Notes: generated by a model from the sequence alone, not told the origin. DNA of 64,000 bases from Oscillospiraceae bacterium (GCA_031548875.1 JAVBQQ010000013.1:16227-80226); one strand, 5' to 3'; shown: positions 12,328 to 47,902, counted from the stretch's first letter. Numbers and translations: made by a program.

Positions 12328-12355
12328 AAGAGGCCATGCATCCGCATGGCCTCTT
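12328..12355 (-). terminator. intrinsic terminator after the histidine kinase gene
   Basis: Stem AAGAGGCCATGC/GCATGGCCTCTT with loop ATCC. On the minus strand it is followed by TTTTTGCTG. Confidence 0.7.
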
Positions 12356-12378
12356 TTCTCGATGAATAGCCGCATCCA

Positions 12379-26158: not shown

Positions 26159-28093
26159 ATGATGAAACGATATCGATTGGCACGCCTAGCGGTCGTTTTG
26201 CTGTTCGCATTTTCCGGGTTGTTCTCCGGGTGCAGTGAAGATACAGACACCTACAGTGGCGACCCGGTACAACCCGCGGACAACTCGAGGGAAACATGGT
26301 CTGTATTCCTGTACCTCTGCGGCACCGATCTGGAATCTGACGGCGGCTTTGCCACAGACAACCTGAACGAGCTGCTTTCGGTGCACTACACGGGCGGCGT
26401 GGATATCTATGTGCAAACCGGCGGCACGGCACAGTGGTCAAATGATTTCGTCGACCCGGGCAAGACCCAGCGCTTCCACGTGCAGGATGGCGAGACGCAG
26501 CTTGTGGATGAACAAGCACTTTCCAGCATGGGCGATCCAGATACCTTGCAAGATTTTCTCTCCTGGGGCGTGAACAATTACCCCGCGGACAAGATGGGCG
26601 TCATCTTTTGGAACCACGGTGGCGGAACACTCTCCGGTGCGGAGTTCGACGAACTGTTCGACAACGACAGCCTGACACTGGACGAACTGCAAGCGGCGTT
26701 TGGGGGTGCGCAGGAAGAGACGGGTGGCATGTTCGAATTTATCGGCTTCGACACCTGCCTGATGGCGACAGTTGAGACGGCCAACCTGCTCGCGCCCTAC
26801 GCGAACTACCTGGTCGCATCAGAGGAAACAGAACCGGGCGGCGGATGGGATTATACGAGCTGGGCGCAATATCTCTCAGACAGTCCCGGTGCCTCGGGAG
26901 CCGACCTTGGCAGGGTAATCTGCGACAGCTTCTATGAAAAATGTGCATCTTTGGACGAAGAGGCCATGGCCACTCTCTCGGTTGTAGACTTTTCCAAACT
27001 GGCACCGCTGGTGTCCGCGTTCGATGACATTTCACAGGACCTGGCAGCAAACGTAGACAAGCCCGAATATTTTGCGGGCATCTCCCGCGGGGCGGCGCGC
27101 TCGGAAAGCTACGGCGGAGATACGCCGGGTGAGGGCTACACAAACCAGGTAGATTTGGGGCATCTGGTTTCCAATATCGCAGATGTACTGCCTGACGGGT
27201 CGGCGACTACGTTGCTTTCCGCATTGGATGATGCCGTGGTCTACCAGGTGAACGGCGAGAACCGGCAAAACGCAACAGGCCTTTCCTTGTTTTTCCCCAT
27301 GACGGTGGCGGGAGACGAAGAAAACCTTGAAAAGTATGATGCGATAACCGCCAGCAGGGCATACACGTCGTTTGTGGACCAGTCCCTGTCAAACGGGCAG
27401 GATGCGGCACAGCAGGAAGATTTTGTCTCTTCTGCCACCGAACCTTATATAGACGACGACGGTATCTATTCGATGGATATCAGCCCGGAATCGATGGTGA
27501 ATGTGCAGGATGTCACATTTTCATTGTATCTGCGGGAGGGCGGGCAGTACTTGTATCTTGGCAGCGACAATGACCTCTATGTGGACTGGGATACCGGCCA
27601 TGTGGAGGACAACTTCCGCGGCGTATGGCCCACGCTGGATGGCTATTATGTTTCGTTCAACATGGTGGACAGTACAGACGAGTACATCGTCTATTCCATC
27701 CCGATATTGCTGAACGGAACACAGACCAACCTGCGCGCAACCTGGACGTGGGATGAGCCTGATTCGGAGGAAAACGCAGGTGGCCGGTTCACCGTTCTGG
27801 GAACGTGGACGGGCGTGGATATGCAAACGGGCATGGCCGAACGGGAGATAATTCCCGTCAAAGACGGAGATAGTATCATTCCGCTGTTTTATGTGTACGA
27901 CGACAAGGGCACCGAAGAGATTGTGGAGGGCGATGAGATTATCGCCAGCGGCAGCCTGCTGCTGGAAGAGCAGGAACTCTTTGCAGGCGAATACTGGTAT
28001 GCCTTCAACATCATCGACGTATATGGCAATGAAACGACGACCGATTACGCGGTGATTACAGTGGATGATGTGGGCGAGATGACGATAGAATAG
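26159..28093 (+). CDS. clostripain-family (peptidase C11) cysteine protease lipoprotein with C-terminal beta-rich domain
   Basis: Lipobox LFSGCSED after MMKRYRLARLAVVLLFAFSG. WSVFLYLCGTDLESDGG..., catalytic His context GVIFWNHGGG and catalytic Cys context FEFIGFDTCLMATVETANLLAPYANYLVASEETEPGGGWDY. Confidence 0.85.
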   Translation: MMKRYRLARLAVVLLFAFSGLFSGCSEDTDTYSGDPVQPADNSRETWSVFLYLCGTDLESDGGFATDNLNELLSVHYTGGVDIYVQTGGTAQWSNDFVDPGKTQRFHVQDGETQLVDEQALSSMGDPDTLQDFLSWGVNNYPADKMGVIFWNHGGGTLSGAEFDELFDNDSLTLDELQAAFGGAQEETGGMFEFIGFDTCLMATVETANLLAPYANYLVASEETEPGGGWDYTSWAQYLSDSPGASGADLGRVICDSFYEKCASLDEEAMATLSVVDFSKLAPLVSAFDDISQDLAANVDKPEYFAGISRGAARSESYGGDTPGEGYTNQVDLGHLVSNIADVLPDGSATTLLSALDDAVVYQVNGENRQNATGLSLFFPMTVAGDEENLEKYDAITASRAYTSFVDQSLSNGQDAAQQEDFVSSATEPYIDDDGIYSMDISPESMVNVQDVTFSLYLREGGQYLYLGSDNDLYVDWDTGHVEDNFRGVWPTLDGYYVSFNMVDSTDEYIVYSIPILLNGTQTNLRATWTWDEPDSEENAGGRFTVLGTWTGVDMQTGMAEREIIPVKDGDSIIPLFYVYDDKGTEEIVEGDEIIASGSLLLEEQELFAGEYWYAFNIIDVYGNETTTDYAVITVDDVGEMTIE

Positions 28094-28148
28094 TGGGTTT
28101 CAATTTGGTGAAAGCCAAAATATTATTGTAAGAAAGTAGGAATGATTT

Positions 28149-28415
28149 ATGGCGGCGTTGATTATTGGTATTATTGCATTGGTACTGGATATCCTTGGGT
28201 TTTTCGGTGTTCCGGGCGTTGCATTTGTTGGCTTTATAATGGGTATTATTGCCTGGGTGATAGGCAGTAAAGCCCTGAAAGCAAACCCGGGCGATGGCAA
28301 AGCCAAAGCTGGAAAGATTTTGGGCATGGTGGTTACCATACTTGGCATCATCAGCATCATTGTCAGCATCCTGCTCATTGTGGGTGTTATCGGGGCGATT
28401 GGACTGATGGCTTGA
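28149..28415 (+). CDS. small membrane protein (DUF4190-like, about 3-4 TM)
   Basis: MAALIIGIIALVLDILGFFGVPGVAFVGFIMGIIAWVIGSKALKANPGDGKAKAGKILGMVVTILGIISIIVSILLIVGVIGAIGLMA. Confidence 0.6.
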   Translation: MAALIIGIIALVLDILGFFGVPGVAFVGFIMGIIAWVIGSKALKANPGDGKAKAGKILGMVVTILGIISIIVSILLIVGVIGAIGLMA

Positions 28416-28428
28416 TGGAATAAGTTGA

Positions 28429-28459
28429 GCAGCGCAAGGGGATTACCCCTTGCGCTGCT
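28429..28459 (+). terminator. hairpin terminator after the small membrane protein gene
   Basis: Stem GCAGCGCAAGGGG/CCCCTTGCGCTGC with loop ATTA. The downstream T-run is weak (ATACGTTTG). Confidence 0.55.
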
Positions 28460-28718
28460 ATACGTTTGTCCTACAAAACACTTTGGCGACGCTACCTCTT
28501 TGTTTACTGCACTAAACCGAATCCAGCCTTCCCGCCAAACAGTAAGTACACTTTGTGATCCCACAACTTATTATTGCGGTTCGGCCACAAAATACAAGAA
28601 GCACATTTGGCCTACCATTGCTATCCGACAAAAGCATACACAAGATGCAAAGCATTATCGTTCAATGCCTGATAGGCAAATATATTGCTTTTTATCGTAT
28701 TTTACTTGTCCTTTTTCT

Positions 28719-28765
28719 CCCTCACAAAAGTCGGGGGAAAAACCGGAGCCGGTCCACCAGCTCCA
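28719..28765 (+). repeat. tRNA-Thr-3'-end-like structured motif, copy 2
   Basis: CCCTCACAAAAGTCGGGGGAAAAACCGGAGCCGGTCCACCAGCTCCA, identical to copy 1 from CACAAAAG onward. Confidence 0.85.
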
Positions 28766-29147
28766 TCTAATGCCAACAATAAAGCTGTCATGCGATTTTT
28801 TCACAATTCATCGCTTTATTGTTAGCTTTTTATTGGGATTTTTCACTTCGCACCGCGGGCTGTCATCGGCGTCCATTTGCGAACTGAACCTGCAGGGATA
28901 GCTTTGTCAAAGAACTTGGCGCTGAATAATGGCAATCATATTTGCAGCGTTCAGTTTTCTTTTTCAACCTCTATAGATCTACGGCAGAGATCAATCCGAA
29001 CAATGCACAATAGACAATCACTGATTTTATGTTATATGGAATGCCACTAAGTATAACAACCAAATTATCGTCAATCGTAATTATTATTCAATCAACTCTA
29101 CTGGCGGCACACACGAAAACATATCACGGAATATACGATGAAAAAGA

Positions 29148-29396
29148 GTGGTCACGTTCTTCATGGCCCTTGCACTGTGTGCCACCACGCTAGTGAGTGT
29201 ACTGCTCGCGGCGACAGGTGTGGGCGCGGCCAGCGCAGCTTCCGCGGATAACCAACCCGCATCCCAGTATTTCGGCGTGAGCGCCGACGCCATCGTGGCG
29301 GAACTGTCGGCCCACGAGGGCGACGGGTACTACCTGGAGACACCGTATCGGGACATCAACACTAGTTTTACAGATGCCCAAAATAGATTGCTTTGA
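29148..29396 (+). pseudogene. N-terminal fragment of a secreted protein (signal peptide plus about 50 aa), probably a remnant
   Basis: VVTFFMALALCATTLVSVLLAATGVGAASA, then SADNQPASQYFGVSADAIVAELSAHEGDGYYLETPY..., then stop. An upstream ATGAAAAAG is one nucleotide out of frame. Confidence 0.3.
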
Positions 29397-29562
29397 GGTG
29401 ATGAATGAAGTTCTTGCAAGCCGGGCGGCTTTCGCGACCCGGTTTTCCTATGCGACCGTGCGAAAACCTCGCGTGCACATTGTGCCCTGCCGTCAACTTA
29501 CGCTTTGTGCTATAATAAACCCATTGAAAAGAACGTCTATTTCCCGGAAAGGCGGCTTCACA

Positions 29563-31080
29563 ATGACCATCACCCTCTGCATGTTGCTGGACATGCTGAT
29601 GTACAAATACCCCGGGATGGGAATTGGAAACTACCACTCCTGCCCGGTGAACGGCGTGAAGGTGCTGCCTGCCCATCCGGAAGATTTTGCCGCGGGCTTC
29701 CTGTACGTGGGTGGAGAGGATGGCCGGGTGGTGCTGCGCTGTGGCGAGGGGCAGGATGTGCGCATCGAGACGGATCTGTCCTTTGACCGGGTGTTCAACG
29801 AACTGCAGGACGATTACTCCACTCTGCGGGATTGGGACATGCACATGCACCTTGCGCTCATACAGGATGGTTCTGTGCAGGATCTCATCGATTTAAGCCT
29901 GCCCATATTGCAGAACCCCCTTACATTTTTGGACCCCAGCTTCAAGCTGGTGGCGTATACGAAGGATGTTTCTACGCCCGCCAAGATATTCCACGATATC
30001 TTGAAATATGGCTGTCTGCCCGCCAAGACCGTGGAGATGTATGAGCGCACCGGCTTTTTCTCCACACTGCTGGAAGCAGGCGGGGAACAATTTTCGCGTA
30101 CTGCGCCCAGCTACATCTCGGTCATCCATGCCATCCAGTTGGATGGCAGTGTGGCGGGTTATCTTTCCATGCCCTGCACAGGCCGCTACTATACCGAGGG
30201 CGAGGCAGAGTTGTTCGAGGTGCTGTGCGAGAATGTGAAGGCCTATCTGACTAGTGAATTGAAAAACCAAACGGTGAGCCGGTACATGTACGAATACCTG
30301 CTTGCCGATCTGCTGGATGCGAAAGAGATGGACAACAGCAACCTTTCTGAACGGGCGCGGTATATCGGCCTGCCGTTGAAAAGCCAGTTTCGCCTTCTGA
30401 AGGTCTTTCGTGCAAAACACGACCCCCTGCTGCTAGAATTTCACGTGCGGAAACTGGCTGACATGCTGCCGACAGATCGCGTGTTTGTGCACAAAAAGGA
30501 GCCCTACATCCTGCTGGATTCCCGCCGCAAATACGCCTCGCCCGAAGAACATCTTGTCCACGCGCTGGGTGTGTTGGAGCCTTTTCTGGATAAGGAGAAC
30601 ATCTATTGCGGTGTCAGCCGCCCGTTTGAGAAGCTGGCCGACATCCGATACGCAAGCGCCGAGGCGGATGCCGCCATTCACCTTGGCCTGCGGGTGGAGA
30701 AACTGGAAACGCTGCGTAAGTTGGGCATTGAAACGGTGCCACCCCAGCCAGGTGTGTTCCAGTATGAGGGCTATGCCCTGCACCATATGGTGGAAGCTTG
30801 CAGCCGGGACATCCCTCTGGAGCGGTTGTGCTTTTTGCCACTTTTACGGCTGGTTCGTGCCGACCGCAAGGACAAGACCAACCACACACAGGTGCTGCAT
30901 GCTTATCTGCGCGCCGAACGGCGCGTGTCTAAGGCTGCCGAGACGCTGCATATGCACCGCAACAACGTTGTGTATCGCATCGAAAAAATCGAAGACATGC
31001 TGCACATCAGCCTGGGGGAGGAGCAGACCCGTCGCCAGCTGGAACTGTCCTTCGTGATTCTTGAACTGATGGAACTGTAG
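29563..31080 (+). CDS. PucR-family transcriptional regulator
   Basis: C-terminal PucR HTH: AAETLHMHRNNVVYRIEKIEDMLHISLGEEQTRRQLELSFVILEL. ATG at 29563 (MTITLCMLLDMLM...) is the likely start; the upstream part of the track ORF looks non-coding. Confidence 0.8.
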   Translation: MTITLCMLLDMLMYKYPGMGIGNYHSCPVNGVKVLPAHPEDFAAGFLYVGGEDGRVVLRCGEGQDVRIETDLSFDRVFNELQDDYSTLRDWDMHMHLALIQDGSVQDLIDLSLPILQNPLTFLDPSFKLVAYTKDVSTPAKIFHDILKYGCLPAKTVEMYERTGFFSTLLEAGGEQFSRTAPSYISVIHAIQLDGSVAGYLSMPCTGRYYTEGEAELFEVLCENVKAYLTSELKNQTVSRYMYEYLLADLLDAKEMDNSNLSERARYIGLPLKSQFRLLKVFRAKHDPLLLEFHVRKLADMLPTDRVFVHKKEPYILLDSRRKYASPEEHLVHALGVLEPFLDKENIYCGVSRPFEKLADIRYASAEADAAIHLGLRVEKLETLRKLGIETVPPQPGVFQYEGYALHHMVEACSRDIPLERLCFLPLLRLVRADRKDKTNHTQVLHAYLRAERRVSKAAETLHMHRNNVVYRIEKIEDMLHISLGEEQTRRQLELSFVILELMEL

Positions 31081-31123
31081 GTAGTACTGGTTTTGCCCCG
31101 TTCCTAATAGGCCAGGCCACCCC

Positions 31124-31152
31124 GACCCTTGCGATAGGCAGGGGTTTTTTAT
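31124..31152 (+). terminator. intrinsic terminator after the PucR gene
   Basis: Stem CCCTTGC/GCAGGGG followed by TTTTTTATTTGTTTTT. Confidence 0.6.
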
Positions 31153-31361
31153 TTGTTTTTCTTGCAAAGGAGAAAACGGATACTATCGTCATGTATTCGA
31201 AAATAATCGCAGATAATCCCTCTTTTTGTCCGCAGCATAATGCACAATGAGAACGCTGTGTTCGCCACACAGGATGTTGAGAAATGCAATTGTTCCTTCG
31301 TCCTGCAATCCGTACAATAAAGTTGCCGTTATTTGAATACCAGCGATAAGGAGGGACACAG

Positions 31362-31589
31362 GTGAACAAGATCATCATCAATCGGGAGCTGTGCAACAGC
31401 TGCAAGATCTGCTTCAAGTCCTGCTTTGTGGACGTCATCAAGTGGGACGACGAAACGAAGAAACCCATCGAAGCGTACCCCGAAGACTGTGTGCAGTGCA
31501 TGTTCTGCGAGATCAACTGCCCCCAGTACGCGGTGAAGGTGGTGGAGGACTACAAGAGCTACAACTTCCCCAAAGACAGCCTGCTGTGA
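31362..31589 (+). CDS. 2x[4Fe-4S] ferredoxin-domain protein
   Basis: GTG start after AGGAGGGA. Two cluster motifs: CNSCKICFKSC and CVQCMFCEINCP. Confidence 0.8.
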   Translation: MNKIIINRELCNSCKICFKSCFVDVIKWDDETKKPIEAYPEDCVQCMFCEINCPQYAVKVVEDYKSYNFPKDSLL

Positions 31590-31635
31590 GGAACCGGGGC
31601 GGCATGTGTGCACGCCCCAGAAAGGATGATTAAGT

Positions 31636-33375
31636 ATGGCACAAAACAAGAGTTGCGACGTGCTGGTGGTGGGCGGCAGCCTGGCGGGCCTGGCCGCGGC
31701 CATCACCGCCAAGGAATCGGACCCCGCGCTGGATGTGTTGGTGGCTGAAAAATATACCACCGGCTACGCCGGCAAGGCCAACCGCGGCGCCGGCATCATG
31801 TGCATGCGGGGAGACTACACGACCGAGCAGTTCATGGAGTACCAGATCTCCCGCATCGGCAAATACTTGAACGACCAGGACGCCTTGCGCCAGTATGCGG
31901 ACAACCTGAACGCAGGCGTGGAGGCGTTGGACAAATGGTCCGGCGGGAAGTTTGACAAAAATCCGGACGGTTCCCTCAAAACCCTCAAATGGCGCAGCCA
32001 GATCACCGGCGAGGACGCAAACGGCAAGCGCACCTTCAACGAGGATAACGAGTACCCCTGGACGCTGGCCGCCATTGAGCTGGACTACCTTCCCAATGTG
32101 CGCAAGTATGCCACCAAGCTGGGCGTGAAATTCATCGATCGGGTGGGCATCGTGGATCTGTTGCTGGACAGCGGGAAGATCAGCGGCGCCGTAGGCTATG
32201 ACATCGACTCGGGCGAGCAGATCGTGTTCAGCGCCAAGGCCGTAGTGCTGGCCTGCGGCTGCCAAAACTACCGCATCATGCCCATGTGGAGCCCCGGGCG
32301 CGGCGAGGGCGTTGCCGCCGCCTGGCGCGCGGGCGCGAAGCTTGCCAACGGCGAGTTCGGCTCCTTCTACAACTGGGTATCGCCCTGGAACTTTGAATCC
32401 AACATGGGTGTGGAGTACGCGCTGTACAACGACAAGGGCGAAAACGTGGGTCTGCAACACACGAAGGAGCCCCACCCGGACATCGACCAGGATAGCCTGG
32501 CCGAATGGTACAAACAGGTGCGGGCAGGCAACGGCCCCATGCACTACCATGTGCAGGAGAATATCCTGATGCCCTACCTCACCTCGGTGCTGGCTTCCGA
32601 CGCGTATTATGACCGCCCCTATGCCGACCGCTTCTGGGGCTACCTTTTCTTCAACGCCTTCTCCCAGCAGCCCACCGATGAGGTGGTCCCCGGCCTGATC
32701 GCCGAATACGGCCCGGTGCAGGTGGATCTGAACATGGCCACCAACGTGCCCGGCCTGTACGCCGCCGGCGATATCTGCTACGGCGGCACCCGCGGCTTCG
32801 GCGCGGTGCCGGTATCGCCCGGGCGCATCCGGGGCGCGGGGCTCGCCTTCGCCACCTATTCGGGCCGCATGGCGGGCCCGGCCGTGGCAAAATATGCGGG
32901 GGGCACCACACAGGGCACTATCTTCGACGCGCAGGTGCAGGAGATCGACGAGCGGTTCACTTCGCCGGCCAAACGTGCCAAAAGCGCGGACAGCATGACC
33001 GTGAACGAGTTTGTATCCGAGATCCAAGAGGTGGTGGAGCCGCTGGGCAACAGCCTCTACCGCAGCGAGGAGCGCATGCAGAAGGCGCTGGCCCGCGTGC
33101 TGGAACTGAAGGCGATGAAGGACAGGGTCGTCGCAAAAGACCCGCACCACCTGTTCGGATGCAATGAGGTCGAGGCCATGTTACTGTGCGCCGAGATGTT
33201 CTTCCGGGTATCCCTTGAGCGCAAGGAAAGCATCGGCTGGTTCCTGCGGGAGGACTGCCCCGAACCCTCGGGCAAACTGCAATGGTATGTGGTGGAAAAC
33301 AAGGGCGATGGTGAGCCTGTCATCAAAATGGAAGACGTGCCGCTGGCAAGCTACGCGTATAAACCCAGCGTGTGA
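31636..33375 (+). CDS. FAD-binding flavoprotein oxidoreductase (fumarate reductase / succinate dehydrogenase flavoprotein-like, FAD_binding_2)
   Basis: CDVLVVGGSLAGLAAAITAKE (dinucleotide-binding motif) ... GKANRGAGIM ... VPGLYAAGDICYGG. Paired with the upstream small ferredoxin. Confidence 0.8.
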   Translation: MAQNKSCDVLVVGGSLAGLAAAITAKESDPALDVLVAEKYTTGYAGKANRGAGIMCMRGDYTTEQFMEYQISRIGKYLNDQDALRQYADNLNAGVEALDKWSGGKFDKNPDGSLKTLKWRSQITGEDANGKRTFNEDNEYPWTLAAIELDYLPNVRKYATKLGVKFIDRVGIVDLLLDSGKISGAVGYDIDSGEQIVFSAKAVVLACGCQNYRIMPMWSPGRGEGVAAAWRAGAKLANGEFGSFYNWVSPWNFESNMGVEYALYNDKGENVGLQHTKEPHPDIDQDSLAEWYKQVRAGNGPMHYHVQENILMPYLTSVLASDAYYDRPYADRFWGYLFFNAFSQQPTDEVVPGLIAEYGPVQVDLNMATNVPGLYAAGDICYGGTRGFGAVPVSPGRIRGAGLAFATYSGRMAGPAVAKYAGGTTQGTIFDAQVQEIDERFTSPAKRAKSADSMTVNEFVSEIQEVVEPLGNSLYRSEERMQKALARVLELKAMKDRVVAKDPHHLFGCNEVEAMLLCAEMFFRVSLERKESIGWFLREDCPEPSGKLQWYVVENKGDGEPVIKMEDVPLASYAYKPSV

Positions 33376-33392
33376 GAGGAGGAAAGACAACA

Positions 33393-34232
33393 ATGGCTGA
33401 AAATCTGAGACCCCTGCGGCCGGACCAGGAAGCCCTGCCGTATGCAAAATACTACTACCGCGATGTGGCTCCCCCAAATCCTAAGCTCATTGCCGAGCTG
33501 AACAAGGGGCCAATGGACCCGGACAAGGCCCTGCCCCTGGATGATATCAACCAGATACTGGATCCCGGCTATCACGAGGTGGAGACCGGCTACTGCGTGC
33601 TGCCCAGCGGCATGGGTTACCTGTGCGTGAACAACGCGTTCCCCGGTGTCACCATCGAGATGCTGCGCTGGTGGTTCGCATGGCATGCTGCGGGCGGCAA
33701 CCTGCGCTACCAGATCTGGTATCCGCCAAGGCACTCGGCCATCGCCGTGGCCGACCAGGACAAACGCAAGATCCTCGACCCGAACGTGCCGCTGAAAGAC
33801 AAGTACGTGGACGTGAGCCACTTCGTGGTGGAGGATATTGGCGGCGGCGATGAGGACATCGTCATCCACTTCATGCGGCCGGAGAATATGGGCTTCGACA
33901 AGGCGAAGTTTGAAGCATCGCCCACCGTTGAGGTGTTCGGCGGCTACGGCGTGACCGAGTCGCACCAACGTTTAGGCAACAAGGCGCCCGCCGTGATGAT
34001 GCACACGGTGCGGGAGATCGAGGGTGGCATGGAGTTCCGCACCCGCTTTTACATGGGCGCGCGCATCGTGGATGGCAAGCCCCGCTGCGTGCTGCCGCCG
34101 GGCGTACAGCTGCCGGTACAGGTGCCTATGGGTCTCGCCTACCACAACGTAGAGGAGTATTCGAATCTCGCGTCCTTCCTACCCGAGATTTATGCAGAGT
34201 TTGGAGACAAACCGCTGGATTATGAAGGATGA
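33393..34232 (+). CDS. DAPG hydrolase (PhlG) / phloretin hydrolase family C-C bond hydrolase
   Basis: PMDPDKALPLDDINQILDPGYHEVETGYCVLPSGMGYLCVNNAFPGVTIEMLRWWFAWHAAGGNLRYQIWYPPRHSAIAV...VVEDIGGG...MMHTVREIEGGMEFRTRFYMG...GLAYHNVEEYSNLASFLPEIY. The WWFxWH...RYxIWxP block is recalled from PhlG-family sequences. Confidence 0.7.
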   Translation: MAENLRPLRPDQEALPYAKYYYRDVAPPNPKLIAELNKGPMDPDKALPLDDINQILDPGYHEVETGYCVLPSGMGYLCVNNAFPGVTIEMLRWWFAWHAAGGNLRYQIWYPPRHSAIAVADQDKRKILDPNVPLKDKYVDVSHFVVEDIGGGDEDIVIHFMRPENMGFDKAKFEASPTVEVFGGYGVTESHQRLGNKAPAVMMHTVREIEGGMEFRTRFYMGARIVDGKPRCVLPPGVQLPVQVPMGLAYHNVEEYSNLASFLPEIYAEFGDKPLDYEG

Positions 34233-34363
34233 TTTTTGGCAGTGCCAACCATCTTTCCTGCTGGGCCAGGGCCCTGTTCACCTTGGGTGAATAGGGCCTT
34301 TGCCCACAGGTGCCAGTCGAATGATCAATCCGATAAAAAATCACAAACATCAGGAGGAAGACT

Positions 34364-35917
34364 ATGAAGGCAATCAAAACCGATGTCGCGATCATGGGCA
34401 GTGGCGTCGCCGGAATGGGGGCTGCCTACAAGCTGGCAAATGCCGGCCTGAAGGTGGACGTATTCGAAAAATACCCCACCCAGGGCGGTGCCGTTTCCAA
34501 CTGCCCCATGTGTTTCTGCTCCACCCCCGATACCCCGGAGGCCCAGAAACGCGCCTTTGAGGTGTTGGCCCGTTTCTCCAACTACACCGCCAACCTGGGT
34601 CTTGTTTCCAAGGTGGTCAAGTATTCCTCCGAGCTGCCCGACCTAATTCTGGAGAAGCTGAATATCAAGGCGCCTTTCGTGGTCGAGCGGCCGCCCGCCG
34701 ACTACGGCAACCAGCGCGGCTATACGATGGGCCACGCCAACGGGCTGGACGTGGGCGACATCTACTTCATCGAGGGCCGCGGCGAGGGCCACGCCATGGC
34801 CCTGGCGCTGTTGCGGCTGCGCCTCATGCTGGAAAAACAGGGCGTGGAATTCCACTTCTCCACCCCCATCAAAAGCATCATCCGGGGTGCGGACGGCGTC
34901 GTCACCGGCGCCATCGCCTGCGAGAGGGACAACGAGAAGGAAGAGACCCAGATCGAATGCAAGGCGCTCATCGTCGCTTCCGGCGGCATCACCGGCAACA
35001 TCCCCATGATGAAAGAGCTGGGCGTCCTCAACACGAAATATGAGGAGTACTACAAGGACGGCTATCTCGTCAACATCACCTTCCCCGACAGCTGCCAGGA
35101 TGGCGACGGGCAGAAGGCCGTGTGGGAGATTGGCGGCAAGAAGGGCGGCATTGTCATCAGCGCCGACCCACAGGTGCCGAATCCCGGCGTCCGTGTGGGC
35201 CCCAACACGCCCTGGCTGGCCGCCAACCAGACCAAGATCATCACCGAGCAGCCGTATCTGCGCGTCAACGAGCTGGGTAGGCGCTTCATCAACGAGGAGA
35301 TGTGCAACAACCACTCCGCCATGTCCTCCGCCGCCGCGCTGAACGCCCCCGACATGGCCTTCTATATGATCTTTGACGAGGATACCGCGGGGCACCTGTC
35401 CGAGGGCGTGGAGGACGGCTACGTCTACTTCATCTTCAAGGACATGAAGGTAGAGAACATACGCGGGCAGATGGACGAGGCCATCGCCAAGGGCAACAAG
35501 CACATGTGCCACTTCGATTCGATCCATGAGGTCTGCGAATACATGGGCATCGACGAAGAGGGCCTTAAAAAAACCATCGATAGGTACAACCATGCCGCCG
35601 AGATCGGCTATGACGAGGACTTCAAGACCGATCCCAAGTACATCCGCCCCGTGCGCGAGGAGAGCGGCCACATCTACTGCTACCGCATCCTCCCTGGCGG
35701 CTACGACACCCTGGGTGGCCTTATCATCGACGAGAACGCCAATGTGCTCGACGCAAACAACATGCCCATTGAGGGCCTGTATGCCGCCGGCGACATGACG
35801 GCCGGCAGCCTGTACGGCGATGCCCCCTCCAACGCCGGCGGTACCGTGTATGGTTCCATGCCCATCGGCATGATTGCGGGCGACGCTGCCGCTATTTATG
35901 TGAAGGGAGAGAACTGA
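34364..35917 (+). CDS. FAD-dependent oxidoreductase (flavocytochrome-c-type fumarate reductase / ene-reductase-like, FAD_binding_2)
   Basis: TDVAIMGSGVAGMGAAYKLANAGLKVDVFEK...ALIVASGGITGN...GGLIIDENANVLDANNMPIEGLYAAGDMTAGSLYG. Confidence 0.8.
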   Translation: MKAIKTDVAIMGSGVAGMGAAYKLANAGLKVDVFEKYPTQGGAVSNCPMCFCSTPDTPEAQKRAFEVLARFSNYTANLGLVSKVVKYSSELPDLILEKLNIKAPFVVERPPADYGNQRGYTMGHANGLDVGDIYFIEGRGEGHAMALALLRLRLMLEKQGVEFHFSTPIKSIIRGADGVVTGAIACERDNEKEETQIECKALIVASGGITGNIPMMKELGVLNTKYEEYYKDGYLVNITFPDSCQDGDGQKAVWEIGGKKGGIVISADPQVPNPGVRVGPNTPWLAANQTKIITEQPYLRVNELGRRFINEEMCNNHSAMSSAAALNAPDMAFYMIFDEDTAGHLSEGVEDGYVYFIFKDMKVENIRGQMDEAIAKGNKHMCHFDSIHEVCEYMGIDEEGLKKTIDRYNHAAEIGYDEDFKTDPKYIRPVREESGHIYCYRILPGGYDTLGGLIIDENANVLDANNMPIEGLYAAGDMTAGSLYGDAPSNAGGTVYGSMPIGMIAGDAAAIYVKGEN

Positions 35918-35919
35918 CT

Positions 35920-36111
35920 ATGAAAATCAAGCTGTCTGAGTATTGCATCCGCTGCGGCATCTGTGAGGACCTCTATCCCGACCTCTACAAGAGGAACTAC
36001 GAGACGCACAGCATGGATGTTTTGTATGATGATATCCCAGAGACGCAGCAGGAAAGAGCTGAGGCGTCCGCCAGGGACTGCGCCGTCGCAGCCATCCAGG
36101 TGGAAAAATAA
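35920..36111 (+). CDS. small single-cluster ferredoxin
   Basis: CIRCGICEDLYP...CAVAAIQVE (three Cys plus one). The start lies 2 nt after the flavoprotein stop. Confidence 0.65.
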   Translation: MKIKLSEYCIRCGICEDLYPDLYKRNYETHSMDVLYDDIPETQQERAEASARDCAVAAIQVEK

Positions 36112-36260
36112 CAACAAGGTTCCACAAGAGGCTACCGCTGCGCGACAAACCACGACCATCTATTGCTACTTTGGTGCAAAGAAATGATAGCATCGTTTTT
36201 AACTATGATATGCTTGTTTTGTTCCGAATGCGCATGACAGCCATTTTGTAAGCATTACAC

Positions 36261-36745
36261 ATTTTACCCACGACCGATTTTAACGTCGATGTGATGTTGA
36301 AATCGGTCGCTTCTTTTTTGCGCGGAGCGCTGGCGACATCGATGCGCTCAATGAGCAAGTGAATGGCCTTGTCGTCGGCTGCATTTTTCAGCGCTTCCAG
36401 CCAGGTGTAGATTTGGTCCGTCGTGTAATCCTTGGGCGGCTGGGCATCGCGCAGGCCGGCCATCTCGTCCAGCAGGCGCTGCATCTCTTTCCCTATATTC
36501 GCCACCACCTCAGCCGGCAGGTCCGGGTTTGTCATGTTGTGCATCAGGCCGTCGTATTCCTTCTGCTTGCGCGCCACTTCCCTGTCCCGCGCCTTTTAGA
36601 ACTCTGCCAGGTCATTGTTTGAGGCACCCTGGTACTTCTTCAATGCCTCGTGGATGGCCTTCTGCACAGCGGGCGAAAGCAGCTCTTTCAGGTACCGGGT
36701 CGCCGCTTTGTCCACAGCCTCCATCTTTACCACCGGCGCGCCGCA
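36261..36745 (-). repeat. recombinase-3'-end repeat, copy 1 (homologous to 45680-46174)
   Basis: By-eye alignment shows about three dozen substitutions and one 10-nt indel over about 485 nt. Confidence 0.8.
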
Positions 36746-36865
36746 ATGCTGCATGCAGCGGTAGTAGATGTACTCGTGCCCCTTGCGCTTGGATATATGC
36801 GCATGCATCTTGCTGCCGCACTCACAATACACCAGCCCGCTGCACAGATAGCTGCGCTTATCCAT
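36261..36865 (-). pseudogene. large serine recombinase, C-terminal fragment only, with TAA nonsense codon
   Basis: DKRSYLCSGLVYCECGSKMHAHISKRKGHEYIYYRCMQHCGAPVVKMEAVDKAATRYLKELLSPAVQKAIHEALKKYQGASNNDLAEF, then stop (complement of 36598-36596), then KARDREVARKQKEYDGLMHNM...ERIDVASAPRKKEATDFNITSTLKSVVGK. The resolvase catalytic domain is absent. Confidence 0.8.
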
Positions 36866-37400
36866 ACCGGCCGTAGTTGCAGGCCAGTTCGATGATCCGG
36901 CTACGCAATTCGTCTTCATCCGCACGGTTTACCTGTTGGTATCGCGCCACCTGTTGGCTAATCTGTATCGCCCGGCACGCGCGGCGTTGGCTCACCAGGT
37001 ACTTTTCCTGCACCCGTTGCATCACCAACCGCCGTTTGGCCGGTCGGCGCATATATGCGCATGAAGTTTCCCTCCGCCACATCCTTCAGTATGGCGTTGT
37101 CCAAGCTCAAATCCGCCACCAGTTTCTTCAGCCTGGCGTTCTCTTTCTCAAGTTCACGGTATTTACGCGCTTCAGATATATTCATGCCACCGTATTTCTT
37201 CCGCCAGTGGGAGTAGGTCTGCTCGCTCACCCCGATTTGGCGTACCGCCTCCCCGATGGTTTTCCTTGCCCGCATAAAACTTCTACCTCGCGCAATTTTA
37301 TGATGACCTGTTCCGTTGTGTGGTTCACTTTTTCCATTCTGCACACCTTCCTTTATGGTGGAGAAAGAAGGGCACCGCAATTACCACCATCCGTATTTAA
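36863..37400 (-). mobile_element. IS3-family insertion sequence fragment (frameshifted orfA plus first ~70 codons of orfB)
   Basis: orfA reads MEKVNHTTEQVIIKLREVEVLCGQG(frameshift)KTIGEAVRQIGVSEQTYSHWRKKYGGMNISEARKYRELEKENARLKKLVADLSLDNAILKDVAEGNF. The orfB frame reads ...AKRRLVMQRVQEKYLVSQRRACRAIQISQQVARYQQVNRADEDELRSRIIELACNYGRYG and stops abruptly at the junction with the recombinase fragment. The right boundary is not defined. Confidence 0.75.
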
Positions 37401-37416
37401 ATATCCTCAATATCTG

Positions 37417-37728
37417 TCAACAGTAGGTGTTATTGACAAAAAAAGAGAAAAAAAGTTGACCAAACAAATCAATCAAATGCGATGCGATTCGGTCAGGAAT
37501 GACTTGATACATGGAAGAACGGATACCATATGATGCGAGCATAGTGAAAAAAGCGCTAGCATTACTGATGTAGGACTGGATGCAGGCTTCATCGTCACAG
37601 ATGGCCATCAGATGTTCCAGATTGTAAAAATCCGCTTCATACGCCCGGCAAAGGGCCAGACAGGAGGGTTTGCTTTCCGATGAGAAATTGGATTGACAGA
37701 ATTGTTTGTGCGGGTACAATGTAAGCAT
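37417..37728 (-). CDS. hypothetical protein (103 aa, A/T-rich, possibly a remnant)
   Basis: Open frame only. Its composition differs from neighbouring genes and no family is recognised. Confidence 0.25.
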   Translation of the reverse strand: MLTLYPHKQFCQSNFSSESKPSCLALCRAYEADFYNLEHLMAICDDEACIQSYISNASAFFTMLASYGIRSSMYQVIPDRIASHLIDLFGQLFFSFFVNNTYC

Positions 37729-37799
37729 GTGCCCTCACAGTGCCATTTGTGTACATTGTGGCGAAAAAACGAGAGGGGCATGCCGAACAAGGAGGGCTT

Positions 37800-39736
37800 A
37801 TGCAGCGCGGCAAAAAAGACCTGCTCTACCTTCTCATCCCGCTTGCCGTTGTGACGGCGCTCCTTGCGCTATGGTATTCGAATATCACCACCCAAAGCAC
37901 CGATGTGGTTAGCGAGACCGCAGAGTGGAACCTGTCCGCTCTGCCTTTTGAGGATTCCAATTACCGCCTGTGCGGCCCGGTGGAATATATTCCGAACGCA
38001 CTTTTAACGCCCGAAGAATTTGCGCAGCGGGAAGATGACATCGTACTTGGAAACGCCTTCGAAACCGCCCAGTATGCCACCAGCCGTTTTTATATCATCG
38101 TGCCGGACGGGTACTACACCCTTGCCCGGCGCAGCCCGGATTTTTCCGAACGCCTTTTTATTAATGGAGAATGGGTGTTGGACGTTGGCCAGCCCGGCAA
38201 CTCGAGGGAGACGATGGTCCCCAACACCGGCAGGATCCTGCTCACCGTCACCCCCAAAGATGGCGTCATCGAGGTGGTGCAGCAGTCTTCCAACTTTGTC
38301 CACAGGGAAAGCAGTTCCCACGATGGCTGGCACTTTGGGCCGCCCTCGTTGCTGCGCGCGTCCCTCCCGCTGGAATACTGGGAGAACATCCAGATGGGTG
38401 CCTTTCTCGCGCTCTTCTTCATCCATAGTATCCTGTTTTTGCTATTGCCCACCTTCCGCGCCAACCTCTACTTTGCCCTCTTCTGCCTCACCTGGTTTTT
38501 GCGCACCGGCGTCACGGGCACAAAGGTGTTCACTGTAATGTTCCCCTGGCTACCTTGGGTGGCGAAGTTCCGCATCGAGTACCTCGCCTTCCCCCTCACG
38601 GCAGTGTTCATGGTTGCACTTTTGAACGCTATGTTCCCGGGCATATTGGCGCGGTGGTTCCGCTGGGCGGTGTATGGGGTGTCGGCGGTGGTTGCCGGGT
38701 TGTTTGTATTTGCAGATACCCTGTTCATGAGCTACGCCCTGCTCTGGTGCGAGGCGGTATACATCCCCGCCATCCTCTATATCGTCGTGCGCTTTGCCAT
38801 GAAGCTTCGCAGGGTGCGGCAGGAGCAGGTCGTCTTCCTCTTTGGGGTGGGGCTGTTCCTCCTGGCCGCGGTGCACGACATGTTTTACTTTAACGGCATG
38901 CCCATTTTGCTGGATGAGGAGCTCGCGCCCCTTTCCATGCTGGTGTTCACCTTTTGCGAGGCCGTGGCCATCTTCATTGCCACCCTGCGGCAGGTGGAGG
39001 AGGCAAAAGCGCAGGAGCGGCGCCTGGCCCTGGAAAATGCCGCGCTGGACCGGGCCGGCCGCCTGCGCGAAAGCATGATGGCAACGGTGAGCCACGAGAT
39101 GCGCACCCCCCTCACCGTTATGAGCGTGTACGCCCAGATGGCGCGGGAGAACCTGCACGAGATCGGTGTGGACGAGGAGACCACTGCCGATCTTGCCATG
39201 ATGCGGGACGAATCGAAGCGGCTGGCAGAGATGGTGAACGGCCTGCTGGAACTGGCGCCGGAGCAGGACTACAGACAGGCGCGCGCGTTTTTTGATATCC
39301 CGCCGCTGGTGGGGCAGCTGGCGCGCCTGTGCGCCCCCACGCTGGCCAAAAACAATAACCGGCTGGAGGCAGACCTGCCCCAGGACCTGCCCCCTGTTTA
39401 CGGCCACGCGGGCGAATGCACTCAGATTTTGTGGAACCTTCTGGACAACGCCGCCCGCCACACAAAAAACGGCGTCGTCACGGTGCGCGCAGGGGTACGG
39501 CAGGGGGCCGTTGCCGTCACGGTGGCCAACACCGGCGGCGCCATCCCGCCAGAGCTGCTATCCACCATTTTTGAGCGCCGTGTTACCGGCAGCGAGGAGG
39601 GCACCGGCCTAGGGCTTGCCATCTGCCGGGAAATCGTGGAGGCCCACGGGGGCACCATCGGCATAGAAAGCAGCGAGGAAACGGGTACGGCGGTCACATT
39701 CACCCTGCCAACAGGGAAAAAAAGGGGGAAGGGTAA
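37800..39736 (+). CDS. sensor histidine kinase with large extracytoplasmic domain and about 7 TM segments (7TMR-DISM-like); the annotated end assumes an indel in an A7G5 tract
   Basis: ATG at 37800 follows AAGGAGGG. H-box MMATVSHEMRTPLTVM and HATPase WNLLDNAARHT...VANTGGAIPPELLSTIFERRVTGS...GTGLGLAICREIVEAHGGTIGIESSEETGTAVTFTLP. As sequenced, the frame stays open to 40520, running through the response-regulator gene. Confidence 0.75.
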
Positions 39737-39741
39737 CCCAG

Positions 39742-40443
39742 GTGAAAAAAGACGACAAAGCAGTCATCCTGCTCGTAGAGGACAACCCGGCTATACAGGA
39801 GGCAAACAAACGGATATTGGAAAGGGCAGGCTACAACCTGATGGTGGCCGACACACTGGCCGCCGCGCGCGCGGCGATACAGGAAACGCTGCCGGATGCG
39901 ATCGTGCTGGACATCCTGATGCCGGACGGCAACGGACGGGATTTCATCGCCGAGATACGCAAGGTGACGACCGCACCGGTATTGCTGCTGACCTGCCTTA
40001 CGGAGAAGGACGAGAAGCTGCAGGGCCTGCGCGCCGGCGGCGACGACTACATCACAAAGCCCTACGATATCGACGAGCTGCGCGAGCGCGTGGCCGCCTT
40101 TTTGCGCCGGGATGCCCTTGTGCGCAGCAGCGCGGGACAGGACGTCACTTTCGGCCCGCTGGCGCTCAACCTACCCGCCCGCCGGGCGTACATGGCCGGC
40201 AAGGACCTGCAGCTGCTTGGCAAGGAGTTCGACATCCTGCATCAGCTTGCCTGCAGCGCCGGCCGTCCTCTAAGCGCAAAATCCCTGTACGAAGCGGCCT
40301 GGGAGCAGCCCTTCGCCGGCGGCGGCAGCGCGGTGTGGACGCAGATATCCCGCCTGAAACGGAAGATGGCGGAGAACGGCGGCGGCATCCAGATTATCAC
40401 CCTGCGGGGAGAGGGGTACCAATTGGAAATGGCCGGGCCGTAG
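39742..40443 (+). CDS. OmpR-family response regulator
   Basis: GTG start. AVILLVEDNPAIQEANKRILERAGYNLMVADTLAAAR...DAIVLDILMPDGNGRDFIAEIR...GGDDYITKPYDIDEL, plus a winged helix (...VWTQISRLKRKMAE...IITLRGEGYQLEM). Confidence 0.85.
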   Translation: MKKDDKAVILLVEDNPAIQEANKRILERAGYNLMVADTLAAARAAIQETLPDAIVLDILMPDGNGRDFIAEIRKVTTAPVLLLTCLTEKDEKLQGLRAGGDDYITKPYDIDELRERVAAFLRRDALVRSSAGQDVTFGPLALNLPARRAYMAGKDLQLLGKEFDILHQLACSAGRPLSAKSLYEAAWEQPFAGGGSAVWTQISRLKRKMAENGGGIQIITLRGEGYQLEMAGP

Positions 40444-46744: not shown

Positions 46745-47902
46745 TCAGTAGTTGGTGTTCACATGCAGCCATTCCAGCACGGCCTGCAGCTTATTGGCGT
46801 CCACCGAGGTAAAATCCATGATGTTCTTGTTCAGGTGGAAATAGAACCGGCCACCTGGCGCGCAGGTATCCACCAGGCGCTTCACCTCATCAATGCACTC
46901 TTCCTTGCTCTTCGTCATCGTGATGGAGGGGTCGAAGAAGCCGCAGATGACGTGATCTTTGCCCACCACCCTCTTGATGAGCTCATAGTCGCCATATTCA
47001 AACCGCATATTGGTGGTGGACGGAAGCTTCGCCAGATACTCCGCATAGCGGGTCCAGTCCTGCTCGCAGAAGAGGTGGAAGTACACGTCCTTTTCGTTGC
47101 AGGTGGAGATGAGCTGCTCCATGGTTGGCCAGAACAGTTCTTCGAAGGTCTTGGTGCTGATGTACGGGGCCAGGTGCAGCGGCATAAAGGTGAACACACC
47201 CGGCTGCACTCTCGTGTGCAGGGCCTTCTTCAGCATCAGCGGCAGGATGGCTTCCACGGCCGCCTTCACCTTGTCCGGCATCCGGCGCACGTCCATGTTG
47301 ATCTGCTTGAAGCCGCGCAGCTGGTCGGAGAGATAGTCGAACGGCGCCTCGCAGGGCGCGTTGGTAATAAAGCCGGGTGCGTAGCCGTATTTGTCGATCA
47401 GACGCCCGTACACCCCAAACTGGTTCGCGTTGTACCAGTTGAAGCTATCGATGGCCTGGGCCAGCGTGATGCTCTGGCTGGTGGCGTTCCCGGTCATGTT
47501 GGCGCACACCCTGGGCAGGAAGCGCTCCACGATGGTGTTGTAGGGGTCGGCGATGAAATCGTCGTAATCCTCGGCGTACATCGTCTCAATCTCGGGATGC
47601 TGGATGGCGCCGTTCGAGGCCAGTATCCAGTTTTTCGCGCCCAAGATCTGGTAGGTGCCCGCAAAGCGCACGTTTTCAATGGGCAGTGCATCAAAGTAAA
47701 AATCCTTGCATACAGCGTCGTATGCCTGTTCCATCAGGGCCATGTCGTAGTGGGCGCGGCGCAGGTCCAGCCCCGCATACTGGCAACAAGCCTCCAGCGT
47801 GATGGCGCCCCACACGAACACCCGCTTGGGGATCTTTCCCGCAATCGTGTCTTCCCGAATCTTCAGCCGCTCCTGCTGCAACTCCTGTACCTGTGTTGTC
47901 AT
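46745..47902 (-). CDS. uroporphyrinogen decarboxylase (URO-D)-family protein (decarboxylase / MtaA-CmuA-like methyltransferase fold)
   Basis: MTTQVQELQQERLKIREDTIAGKIPKRVFVWGAITLEACCQYAGLDLRRAHYD...FTFMPLHLAPYISTKTFEELFWPTMEQLI...VICGFFDPSITMTKSKEECIDEVKRLVDTCAPGGRFYFHLNKNI. The internal ATG at 47902 is preferred over the track start. The 505-aa + strand ORF here is antisense. Confidence 0.7.
   Translation of the reverse strand: MTTQVQELQQERLKIREDTIAGKIPKRVFVWGAITLEACCQYAGLDLRRAHYDMALMEQAYDAVCKDFYFDALPIENVRFAGTYQILGAKNWILASNGAIQHPEIETMYAEDYDDFIADPYNTIVERFLPRVCANMTGNATSQSITLAQAIDSFNWYNANQFGVYGRLIDKYGYAPGFITNAPCEAPFDYLSDQLRGFKQINMDVRRMPDKVKAAVEAILPLMLKKALHTRVQPGVFTFMPLHLAPYISTKTFEELFWPTMEQLISTCNEKDVYFHLFCEQDWTRYAEYLAKLPSTTNMRFEYGDYELIKRVVGKDHVICGFFDPSITMTKSKEECIDEVKRLVDTCAPGGRFYFHLNKNIMDFTSVDANKLQAVLEWLHVNTNY

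Follow-up and report, generated by a model that had tools for sequence, protein, structure and literature searches.

A PhlG/Phy-family hydrolase encoded with two ferredoxin-linked flavoprotein modules in an Oscillospiraceae bacterium: a candidate reduce-then-hydrolyse system for phloroglucinol-type aryl ketones

Introduction

What reaction would bring together, in a single gene cluster, a C-C bond hydrolase of the PhlG/Phy family and two flavoproteins, each with a small ferredoxin of its own? The question is raised by a stretch of 64,000 nucleotides (nt) of DNA from an Oscillospiraceae bacterium (GCA_031548875.1 JAVBQQ010000013.1:16227-80226), hereafter the window, in which a PucR-family regulator gene is followed on the + strand by the genes of a ferredoxin (Fd75), a flavoprotein (FlavoA), the hydrolase (Hyd), a second flavoprotein (FlavoB), and a second ferredoxin (Fd63). 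We propose that the locus encodes a cytoplasmic reduce-then-hydrolyse system for phloroglucinol-type aryl ketones, with flavonoids of the flavanone/chalcone type as the likeliest substrates, a reading to which we assign a probability of about 0.5. The cluster is a composite of two reductase modules with one common hydrolase: module 1, or the trio, consists of Fd75, FlavoA, and Hyd, and module 2 of FlavoB and Fd63.

The breakdown of dietary flavonoids by bacteria decides which phenolic acids reach the host, and in peat and sediment it affects the amount of polyphenol carbon that is released. The canonical pathway leads from flavone via flavanone, chalcone, and dihydrochalcone to phloroglucinol, and in Eubacterium ramulus and Flavonifractor plautii the dihydrochalcone is formed by Fcr (EnoR), a reductase of the old yellow enzyme (OYE) type. 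A review dated August 2026 lists only the flavone reductase FLR, Fcr, the chalcone isomerase CHI, and the phloretin hydrolase Phy for this pathway, and notes that the electron delivery to FLR is unknown. Since the OYE-type Fcr is the one enzyme known for the ring-opening/enone-reduction step, surveys that count Fcr would miss organisms that use another. Full-text literature searches turned up no paper that connects hydrolases of the Phy family with FAD_binding_2 flavoproteins.

Results and Discussion

Hyd is a full-length member of the PhlG/Phy family

Hyd has 279 amino acids (33393-34232, + strand) and matches the DAPG_hydrolase family (PF18089) with 235.8 bits (cut-off 22.7; E-value 5.5e-70) over profile positions 4-223 of 223, as a full-length family member that contains both the WWFAWH and the RYQIWYP blocks. 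Its closest solved relatives, as found by phmmer against the PDB, are the phloretin hydrolase of Mycobacterium abscessus (5XE5; 1.8e-40) and PhlG of Pseudomonas fluorescens (3HWP; 2.8e-29). Both share with Hyd the PF18089 fold, the WWFxWH block, and the full set of four zinc ligands, but they are distant matches, and the clade of Hyd is marked by a flavoprotein partner that is known for neither of them. The zinc ligands of PhlG, which we take to be His129, Glu160, His270, and Glu274 (this fits the 8-residue tag offset in 3HWP_A), align with H114, E147, H251, and E255 of Hyd, all four of which are kept. These residues are invariant in an alignment of 28 hydrolases and occur in 115, 115, 114, and 115, respectively, of 115 family sequences including PhlG and M. 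abscessus Phy. The initial annotation of the locus had placed the protein in this family and singled out the zinc ligands for inspection; on both points it is borne out.

By score, Hyd appears phloretin-hydrolase-like and nearer to M. abscessus Phy than to PhlG, in a comparison whose characterised reference enzymes were these two. An assignment as a PhlG orthologue was rejected, with 111.7 bits against a cut-off of 600 for the NCBIfam equivalog model NF047887. Hyd is ~50% identical to a Clostridium-type clade whose members adjoin Fcr-like and FLR-like genes; in the homologue search, the best match among the cluster representatives listed was 82% identical, and an identical sequence lies inside that cluster. 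Hyd thus adds a new protein to an established family, and its ferredoxin-linked reductase partners are uncharacterised.

Fd75, FlavoA, and Hyd form a unit conserved across three phyla

A hydrolase profile run against a single genome for each GTDB species gave 80 loci, and we searched the open reading frames (ORFs) of these loci (L numbers below) with the window proteins, counting adjacency by stop-codon distances. A FlavoA homologue lies directly upstream of the hydrolase in 35 of the 69 loci with enough flank, and it is accompanied by an Fd75 homologue in 32 of the 34 FlavoA-hydrolase loci with enough upstream sequence. The association is tighter among hydrolases at least 54% identical to Hyd with at least 2 kb of upstream sequence: 16 of 17 have FlavoA directly upstream, and the sole exception has a FlavoB-like protein in that place. 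Conversely, on metagenome contigs, FlavoA homologues of at least 50% identity are directly followed by the hydrolase in 24 of 26 cases, a CocE/NonD-type hydrolase occupying the downstream position in the other two. Carriers of the trio in Bacillota are Lachnospiraceae, Eubacterium spp., Emergencia timonensis, Flavonifractor sp., and Ruminiclostridium josui; beyond this phylum they belong to Actinomycetota (Thermoleophilia, Gaiellales) and Desulfobacterota. Neighbour joining groups the hydrolases that have a close FlavoA in one clade, sister to the Clostridium-type clade with other reductases.

Such recurrence among species-level loci indicates that the arrangement is not a chance juxtaposition, and we consider the functional coupling of module 1 highly probable. 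The co-conservation that had been anticipated for the whole cluster therefore stands for the unit of Fd75, FlavoA, and Hyd in three phyla, and fails for FlavoB and Fd63, which mostly stand alone elsewhere. The logic of reduction followed by cleavage, as first suggested for this locus, fits the co-conservation of the trio.

More distant Fd-FlavoA-like pairs (35-43% identity) precede hydrolases of other types, namely of the Cyclase, alpha/beta, and Amidohydro_2 families (L128 6727-7659, L143 4085-6045, L147 3831-6101, L123 5996-7711, and L125 6081-7823). This variety suggests a general theme of reductase plus hydrolase, and the distant pairs may include dearomatising reductases of the resorcinol type.

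A further observation concerns nine Thermoleophilia metagenome-assembled genomes (MAGs; L024, L025, L030, L032, L037, L048, L056, L060, and L085), in which up to three hydrolase paralogues surround a chalcone-isomerase homologue. The order, at ~6300-12600 in each locus, is Fd-FlavoA-Hyd, CHI, Hyd, and a further Hyd, and the paralogues fall into separate clades of the tree. One of them could be an alphitonin-cleaving enzyme.

FlavoA is an SdhA/FrdA/AprA-like protein with a dedicated ferredoxin

FlavoA (579 amino acids; 31636-33375, +) matches FAD_binding_2 (2.4e-22) and Succ_DH_flav_C (2.9e-08), and Fd75 (75 amino acids; 31362-31589, +) is a 2x[4Fe-4S] ferredoxin with two CxxCxxCxxxC motifs (Fer4_7 8.4e-09, Fer4 2.2e-08). 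All NCBIfam matches of FlavoA are far under their cut-offs, the best with 133 bits against 587, and none of its homologues among the best 120 of 175 bears a functional name. In the AlphaFold2 (AF2) model, computed from an alignment of database sequences only (pLDDT 87.9), the predicted fold resembles FrdA, SdhA, and the alpha subunits of APS and PAPS reductases, with Foldseek template modelling (TM) scores of 0.71-0.78 (0.78 for E. coli FrdA) at identities of at most 23%. In the alignment with FrdA, the position of His44, which carries the covalent FAD, is an Ala, His232 is replaced by Tyr245, and His355 by Ile; Arg390 is kept, and the capping domain, where Arg287 lies, is outside the alignment. 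The FAD of FlavoA is accordingly predicted to be non-covalent, and AprA likewise binds FAD non-covalently. FlavoA is thus SdhA/FrdA/AprA-like, a putative ferredoxin-dependent reductase, and not of the soluble fumarate-reductase type that the initial annotation had cited.

APS/PAPS reductases of the AprBA type and complex II share with FlavoA not only the fold but also the arrangement, with a small iron-sulfur protein encoded directly upstream, as Fd75 is here. They differ from it in that sequence identity does not exceed 23%, Fd75 is a bare ferredoxin of 75 residues and not of the SdhB/FrdB type, and FlavoA is without the dicarboxylate-binding His. In addition, the partner in the window is a C-C hydrolase, in contrast to the sulfur metabolism of AprBA. 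An identity as APS reductase was therefore discarded: fold and architecture are similar, but the scores against the NCBIfam models are far under the cut-offs both for aprA (FlavoA, 54.8 bits; cut-off 641.75) and for aprB (Fd75, 21.3 bits; cut-off 135.65), the latter match covering positions 5-68 of 132, i.e., the N-terminal half. A true fumarate reductase or aspartate oxidase is dismissed by the loss of substrate-binding residues in FlavoA and FlavoB alike, in agreement with the first view of these proteins. Both flavoproteins begin directly with the FAD-binding motif and have no obvious signal peptide, so we read them as cytoplasmic; the same position of the motif at the extreme N-terminus speaks against an exported respiratory reductase.

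The trio occurs among flavonoid-pathway homologues in other genomes

The most informative neighbourhood is that of L004, an Actinomycetes MAG (L019 is the same region). Its genes run from a B12-binding and a URO-D protein (demethylase-like) through FMN_red and Chalcone_N to the ferredoxin, FlavoA, and the hydrolase, and continue with a regulator, SDR, 3HCDH, Cyclase, and AhtL-like molybdoenzymes. The FMN_red protein matches the flavone reductase of F. plautii (PDB 7D38, confirmed as FLR) at 3.2e-91, and the Chalcone_N protein matches the chalcone isomerase of E. ramulus at 5.6e-56. No OYE-type gene was called within 8 kb of the trio in this locus. The gene order matches that of the canonical pathway, so that Fd-FlavoA occupies the position of the reductase step. 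SDR, 3HCDH, and Cyclase are presumably of the types of phloroglucinol reductase, hydroxyacyl dehydrogenase, and dihydrophloroglucinol cyclohydrolase; the best solved relatives of the SDR protein are generic sugar dehydrogenases, and hence the assignment to the phloroglucinol pathway is by context only. The order FLR, CHI, trio recurs in L017, L018, and L084 (Actinomycetota), and L011 (Actinomycetota) has its FLR and CHI homologues on the downstream side of the hydrolase. In Desulfobacterota (L078-L080), CHI, an FLR-like gene, and a distant trio follow one another in that order, with SDR and 3HCDH homologues also present in L078 and L080. The initial annotation had taken the unusual arrangement as a sign of a probably non-flavonoid substrate. 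That expectation is not upheld by the position of the trio between FLR/CHI homologues and, in one locus, genes of the phloroglucinol-pathway type: this context indicates that the enzyme differs, and not necessarily the substrate.

The systems of Fcr and Phy in E. ramulus, F. plautii, and Clostridium ljungdahlii follow the same proposed logic, reduction to the dihydrochalcone and then C-C hydrolysis to phloroglucinol, with a hydrolase of the same family and, in other genomes, the same neighbours (FLR, CHI, and homologues of phloroglucinol-pathway enzymes). However, Fcr is a NADH-dependent FMN/FAD/[4Fe-4S] enzyme of ~660 amino acids and of the OYE/FadH type, which is not homologous to FlavoA or FlavoB. 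The window instead encodes two FAD proteins: one is SdhA/AprA-like and comes with a separate 2x[4Fe-4S] ferredoxin, and the other is soluble-fumarate-reductase-like and comes with a single-cluster ferredoxin. Using E. coli FadH as a BLASTP probe for the Fcr type, we found Fcr-like ORFs of 654-690 amino acids in many related loci and none in the window. Of the 50 hydrolase copies without an adjoining flavoprotein, 11 are directly followed by an Fcr-like gene (Clostridium-type order Hyd-Fcr-FLR); in none of the 16 loci with a close FlavoA does such a gene directly follow the hydrolase.

The trio of R. josui has other surroundings. In L091 (JAGE01000001.1, 4880-18730; also L092), a tightly packed operon includes the genes for the ferredoxin, FlavoA (62%), and the hydrolase (49%), the last two of which overlap by 4 nt where the window has a 17-nt gap. 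The three are flanked upstream by genes for an MFS transporter and an acyl-AMP ligase-ACP protein, and downstream by two KS-AT-ACP polyketide synthases (PKSs) and a LytTR regulator. In this cultured organism, the context of the trio is biosynthetic rather than catabolic.

As a side observation, O-demethylase-like pairs of URO-D and B12-binding genes are neighbours of the trio in several loci of Actinomycetota, and such a pair also occurs near FlavoB in L094. The window encodes a URO-D-family protein (4.7e-10) at 46745-48022 on the - strand.

FlavoB and Fd63 form a second, separable module

FlavoB (517 amino acids; 34364-35917, +) matches FAD_binding_2 over its whole length (4.1e-35) and is of the soluble-fumarate-reductase/KstD/VprA-like type. 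Its best NCBIfam match is vinyl phenol reductase VprA (NF053717), with 171.3 bits against a cut-off of 600, and it scores 119.8 bits against TIGR01813 (cut-off 285). Compared with Shewanella Fcc3, the substrate-binding His (HxTMGG) is changed to Tyr and the Arg (ANRLGG) to Ser. Homologues are numerous at 66-91% identity, and none of the best 114 listed has a functional name. In general type, FlavoB as a full-length FAD_binding_2 protein is comparable to Ber (E. lenta), VprA (Lactobacillus), and UrdA, the urocanate reductase, which is among its PDB matches; Ber is set beside it by description only. It is distinguished from the reductases of the VprA/UrdA type by the altered substrate-binding residues and by a dedicated Fer4_13 ferredoxin. 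FlavoB has no obvious signal peptide, FMN-binding domain, or cytochrome domain, and its N-terminus runs straight into the FAD-binding motif. Fd63 (63 amino acids; 35920-36111, +; Fer4_13 3.9e-09) begins 2 nt past the FlavoB stop, and its four Cys indicate a single [4Fe-4S] cluster. A Fer4_13 gene stands 3' of the FlavoB homologue in every locus examined (L094, L095-097, L178/179, and L180/181).

The genomic distribution of this pair is unlike that of the trio. In L094, L178/179, and L180/181, a divergent LysR or PucR regulator gene accompanies FlavoB and Fd63 and there is no hydrolase, which is the usual setting of the pair, and one Eubacterium sp. MAG carries the trio on one contig (L021) and the FlavoB-Fd63 pair on another (L178). 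In L002, the closest relative of the window, a pair of FlavoB-like protein and ferredoxin lies upstream of the trio at 43% and 40% identity. The idea of one five-gene pathway, with which the analysis started, thus gives way to a junction of two modules, the second of which has its own LysR or PucR regulator elsewhere. Nevertheless, FlavoB homologues adjoin family hydrolases in L002 and L095-097. The Anaerovoracaceae contigs have, in this order, a divergent PucR, a PhlG/Phy-family hydrolase of 270 amino acids, FlavoB (74%), and Fd63 (62%). Distant FlavoB-like proteins (27-32%) adjoin the hydrolase in Clostridium scatologenes, L020/L089, and the Clostridium-type loci L035, L044, L050, and L051. 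We somewhat favour an involvement of module 2 with the hydrolase over its absence.

In L087 (C. scatologenes, CP009933.1, 6770-14633) and L089 (2650-8849), the hydrolase and a distant FlavoB-like protein are encoded together with two large NADH/Fe-S flavoproteins (Fer2_4, NADH-G_4Fe-4S_3, Pyr_redox_2, and Complex1_51K types), which may provide NADH-linked or bifurcating electron input for the same step. L087 also has an FLR-like FMN_red gene, near phloroglucinol-pathway genes.

Proposed mechanism

In the proposed mechanism, Fd75 would draw electrons from a low-potential pool and relay them through both of its [4Fe-4S] clusters to the FAD that FlavoA is predicted to bind non-covalently, a transfer that would mirror the way in which AprB, FrdB, and SdhB serve their flavoprotein subunits. 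FlavoA would convert the enone of a ring-opened flavanone, in its chalcone or quinone-methide form, to the dihydrochalcone. Hyd, as a zinc enzyme, would then split the aryl-carbonyl C-C bond to yield phloroglucinol and an arylpropionic acid. FlavoB-Fd63 would be a second, separately evolving ferredoxin-linked reductase beside the same Hyd, probably for a different, though related, substrate. A flavanone or a chalcone would be well matched by the chemistry of quinone-methide or enone reduction. There is precedent in the E. lenta benzyl ether reductase Ber, described as fumarate-reductase-like, and in Fcr, which cleaves a benzyl ether. If the proposal is true, a conserved module in gut Bacillota, soil Actinomycetota, and Desulfobacterota widens the range of predicted flavonoid degraders, the enone step is tied to the ferredoxin pool instead of NADH, and biocatalysis gains a new kind of ene-reductase.

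Several points weigh against this proposal. The function of the locus is assigned through guilt by association, with substrate, reaction direction, electron path, and regulation all taken from gene context, and gene order cannot tell which of the two enzymes, reductase or hydrolase, acts first. ORF searches of the 64-kb window found no homologues of CHI, FLR, Fcr, or phloroglucinol-pathway enzymes. The absence of Fcr next to the hydrolase in loci with a close FlavoA differs from the remaining copies with modest significance only. Moreover, an OYE-type gene lies within 10 kb in 4 of the 16 close-FlavoA loci; L012, L018, and L084 carry an Fcr-like gene within that distance, L078-L080 carry one together with a distant FlavoA, and L017 holds all three reductase types in one operon. 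Loci that have both show that FlavoA is not a simple replacement of Fcr, and the idea that it replaces Fcr everywhere is weakened accordingly. The R. josui trio within a PKS operon points to non-flavonoid, acylphloroglucinol-like substrates. As for module 2, its predominantly stand-alone occurrence counts against a common function, and a fortuitous juxtaposition would be compatible with the 131 nt that separate FlavoB from Hyd and with the debris of mobile elements downstream of the cluster. On balance, we hold the combination of a flavonoid-type substrate and a reductase acting before the hydrolase to be an even bet.

Alternative explanations

The same reduce-then-hydrolyse logic could serve non-flavonoid substrates of the acylphloroglucinol, beta-triketone, or polyketide type, such as bacterial polyketides, hop acids, curcuminoid-like diketones, or isoflavanone-derived ketones of the O-desmethylangolensin type. 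The R. josui operon favours such substrates, as do the window and most gut Bacillota loci, where neither CHI nor FLR lies beside the trio; PhlG itself acts on a bacterial polyketide, in the phl cluster. However, R. josui is the only PKS-linked case found, Hyd scores nearer to phloretin hydrolase than to PhlG, the informative catabolic neighbours in Actinomycetota (L004, L011, L017, L018, and L084) are FLR and CHI homologues, and the distant trio of Desulfobacterota has neighbours of the same kind, so we regard a non-flavonoid substrate as unlikely, at perhaps the odds of an outsider. We think it less probable again that Fd75-FlavoA acts on the product of the hydrolase, as a dearomatising reductase for phloroglucinol or for resorcinol (from ketones of the O-desmethylangolensin type), analogous to the resorcinol reductase known from biochemistry. 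Such a role would agree with the lack of a phloroglucinol reductase (PGR)-type gene near the window cluster and with the distant pairs that precede Cyclase, alpha/beta, and Amidohydro_2 hydrolases, Cyclase being the family of the third phloroglucinol-pathway-type gene of L004. According to an mBio paper on Clostridium scatologenes, resorcinol reductase depends on ferredoxin; one further literature search for this enzyme yielded the same paper alone and no gene assignment. Another phloroglucinol reductase would nonetheless be redundant in L004/L019, where the trio coexists with the complete set of SDR, 3HCDH, and Cyclase, and L078 and L080 likewise have SDR and 3HCDH; the order in L004 fits FLR, CHI, reductase, and hydrolase.

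A stronger competitor, which we place only a little below the involvement of module 2, holds that module 1 alone is tied to the hydrolase and that FlavoB-Fd63 is an unrelated, independently regulated reductase, for example for a vinylphenol or hydroxycinnamate-type substrate, which was placed there by rearrangement. The stand-alone pairs with divergent LysR or PucR genes, the separate contigs of the Eubacterium sp. MAG, and the mere 43% and 40% identity of the upstream pair in L002 are all as this would have it; so are the gap before FlavoB, the recombinase and transposase fragments downstream, and vinyl phenol reductase as the best family match. The Anaerovoracaceae contigs oppose it with FlavoB and Fd63 directly after a PhlG/Phy-family hydrolase, as do the distant FlavoB-like proteins that flank hydrolases in C. 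scatologenes, L020/L089, and other Clostridium-type loci, and no terminator was detected between Hyd and FlavoB in a hairpin scan. By comparison, it is extremely improbable that the clustering is meaningless and both flavoproteins are fumarate reductases, succinate dehydrogenases, or L-aspartate oxidases of the ordinary kind. Pfam and NCBIfam do put both in FAD_binding_2/fumarate-reductase-like families, and public annotation calls the homologues 'succinate dehydrogenase/fumarate reductase flavoprotein subunit'; but NCBIfam scores fall far under the cut-offs, as in the 133 versus 587 bits of FlavoA, the substrate-binding His is replaced in both proteins, with loss of the Arg in FlavoB and of the covalent-FAD His in FlavoA, no SdhB/FrdB-type partner is present, and the adjacency to the hydrolase is kept across three phyla.

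Beyond the flavonoid reading of the locus, a wider and tentative generalisation, which we rate well short of even, is that FlavoA and its small ferredoxin belong to an unrecognised class of AprBA-like, ferredoxin-dependent ene/aryl reductases. These would be paired with varied hydrolases (PhlG/Phy-type, Cyclase-type, alpha/beta, and Amidohydro_2) in a general anaerobic reduce-then-hydrolyse strategy for phenolic ketones and phenols. The two modules of the window would then give Hyd two substrate classes or enantiomers (e.g., flavanones versus isoflavanones, the O-desmethylangolensin route), and the distant relatives would include resorcinol reductase. Orphan reactions for which the module offers candidates include the formation of O-desmethylangolensin and the reduction of resorcinol. 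R. josui and Emergencia timonensis are cultured carriers, as is Clostridium scatologenes for the FlavoB-like type.

Regulator and leader

The regulator gene upstream of the cluster (29563-31080, +) encodes a protein of 505 amino acids with HTH_30 (5.4e-14; 52.2 bits, cut-off 27) and GGDEF_2 (1.3e-06; 29.1 bits, cut-off 24.5), which places it in the PucR/CdaR family. A longer ORF begins at 29374, and the public gene call on the Logan contig L090, which comes from the same genome as the window, uses the start for 505 amino acids. Eight other loci, all of them Bacillota, have a PucR-type gene no more than 6 kb from the trio; a homologue 39% identical to the window protein lies near the trio in the Flavonifractor sp. 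MAG L009. The PucR-type protein is a candidate regulator that probably induces at least module 1. Its gene is followed by a hairpin resembling an intrinsic terminator (31124-31146, +; 9 pairs, 5 of them G-C) with the T-run tail TTTTATTTGT.

The 215-nt leader of the Fd75 gene contains, ~90 nt 5' of that gene, a perfect palindrome CTGTGT-N5-ACACAG (31256-31272; full sequence CTGTGTTCGCCACACAG). It is the sole match in the window at up to 1 mismatch, with a chance expectation of 0.08, and 8 of 100 shuffles gave at least one match. Elsewhere it was seen only on L090, that is, it is not conserved among the other loci, and we regard it, speculatively, as a candidate operator. An Rfam scan found no riboswitch or other RNA element in the leader. 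A weak ctRNA_pGA1 match at 28414-28479 (-), with 31.5 bits against a gathering score of 45 (E 0.0037), is probably due to chance.

Boundaries of the cluster and neighbouring genes

All six genes lie on the + strand in the order that the initial annotation had given, with the terminator after the PucR gene, and its remark on very small intergenic gaps is matched by 46, 17, 131, and 2 nt between successive genes from Fd75 to Fd63, the hydrolase gene starting 17 nt after that of the first flavoprotein. Every gene is preceded by a Shine-Dalgarno-like sequence, with AGGAGG before the GTG start of Fd75 and GAGGAGG before Hyd. An identical gene set is present on L090, and the nearest species-level genome is a MAG named 'Eubacteriales bacterium', whose hydrolase is 78% identical to Hyd.

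A terminator-like hairpin of 18 pairs with the T-run tail CTTCTTTTTT follows Fd63 at 36271-36309 (+) and is likely to be the 3' end of the transcription unit. Directly 3' of the cluster, fragments of recombinase and transposase genes form a boundary on the - strand (36203-37533), with Zn_ribbon_recom, of the serine-recombinase type, at 36596-36925 (1.2e-07) and HTH_Tnp_1 at 36958-37380 (7.3e-12). Just upstream of the cluster, at 28001-30000, the G+C content drops to 48%; together with the recombinase and transposase debris, this dip is consistent with acquisition by a mobile element or with rearrangement.

Farther downstream, a 7TMR-DISM histidine kinase and an OmpR-type response regulator are encoded at 37740-40443. 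The longest kinase ORF (926 amino acids) extends beyond the kinase domains into the regulator gene, with which it overlaps in a different frame; this is probably an artefact of high G+C content. They are followed at 40591-44733 by the gene of a secreted-type, fn3-rich protein of 1380 amino acids.

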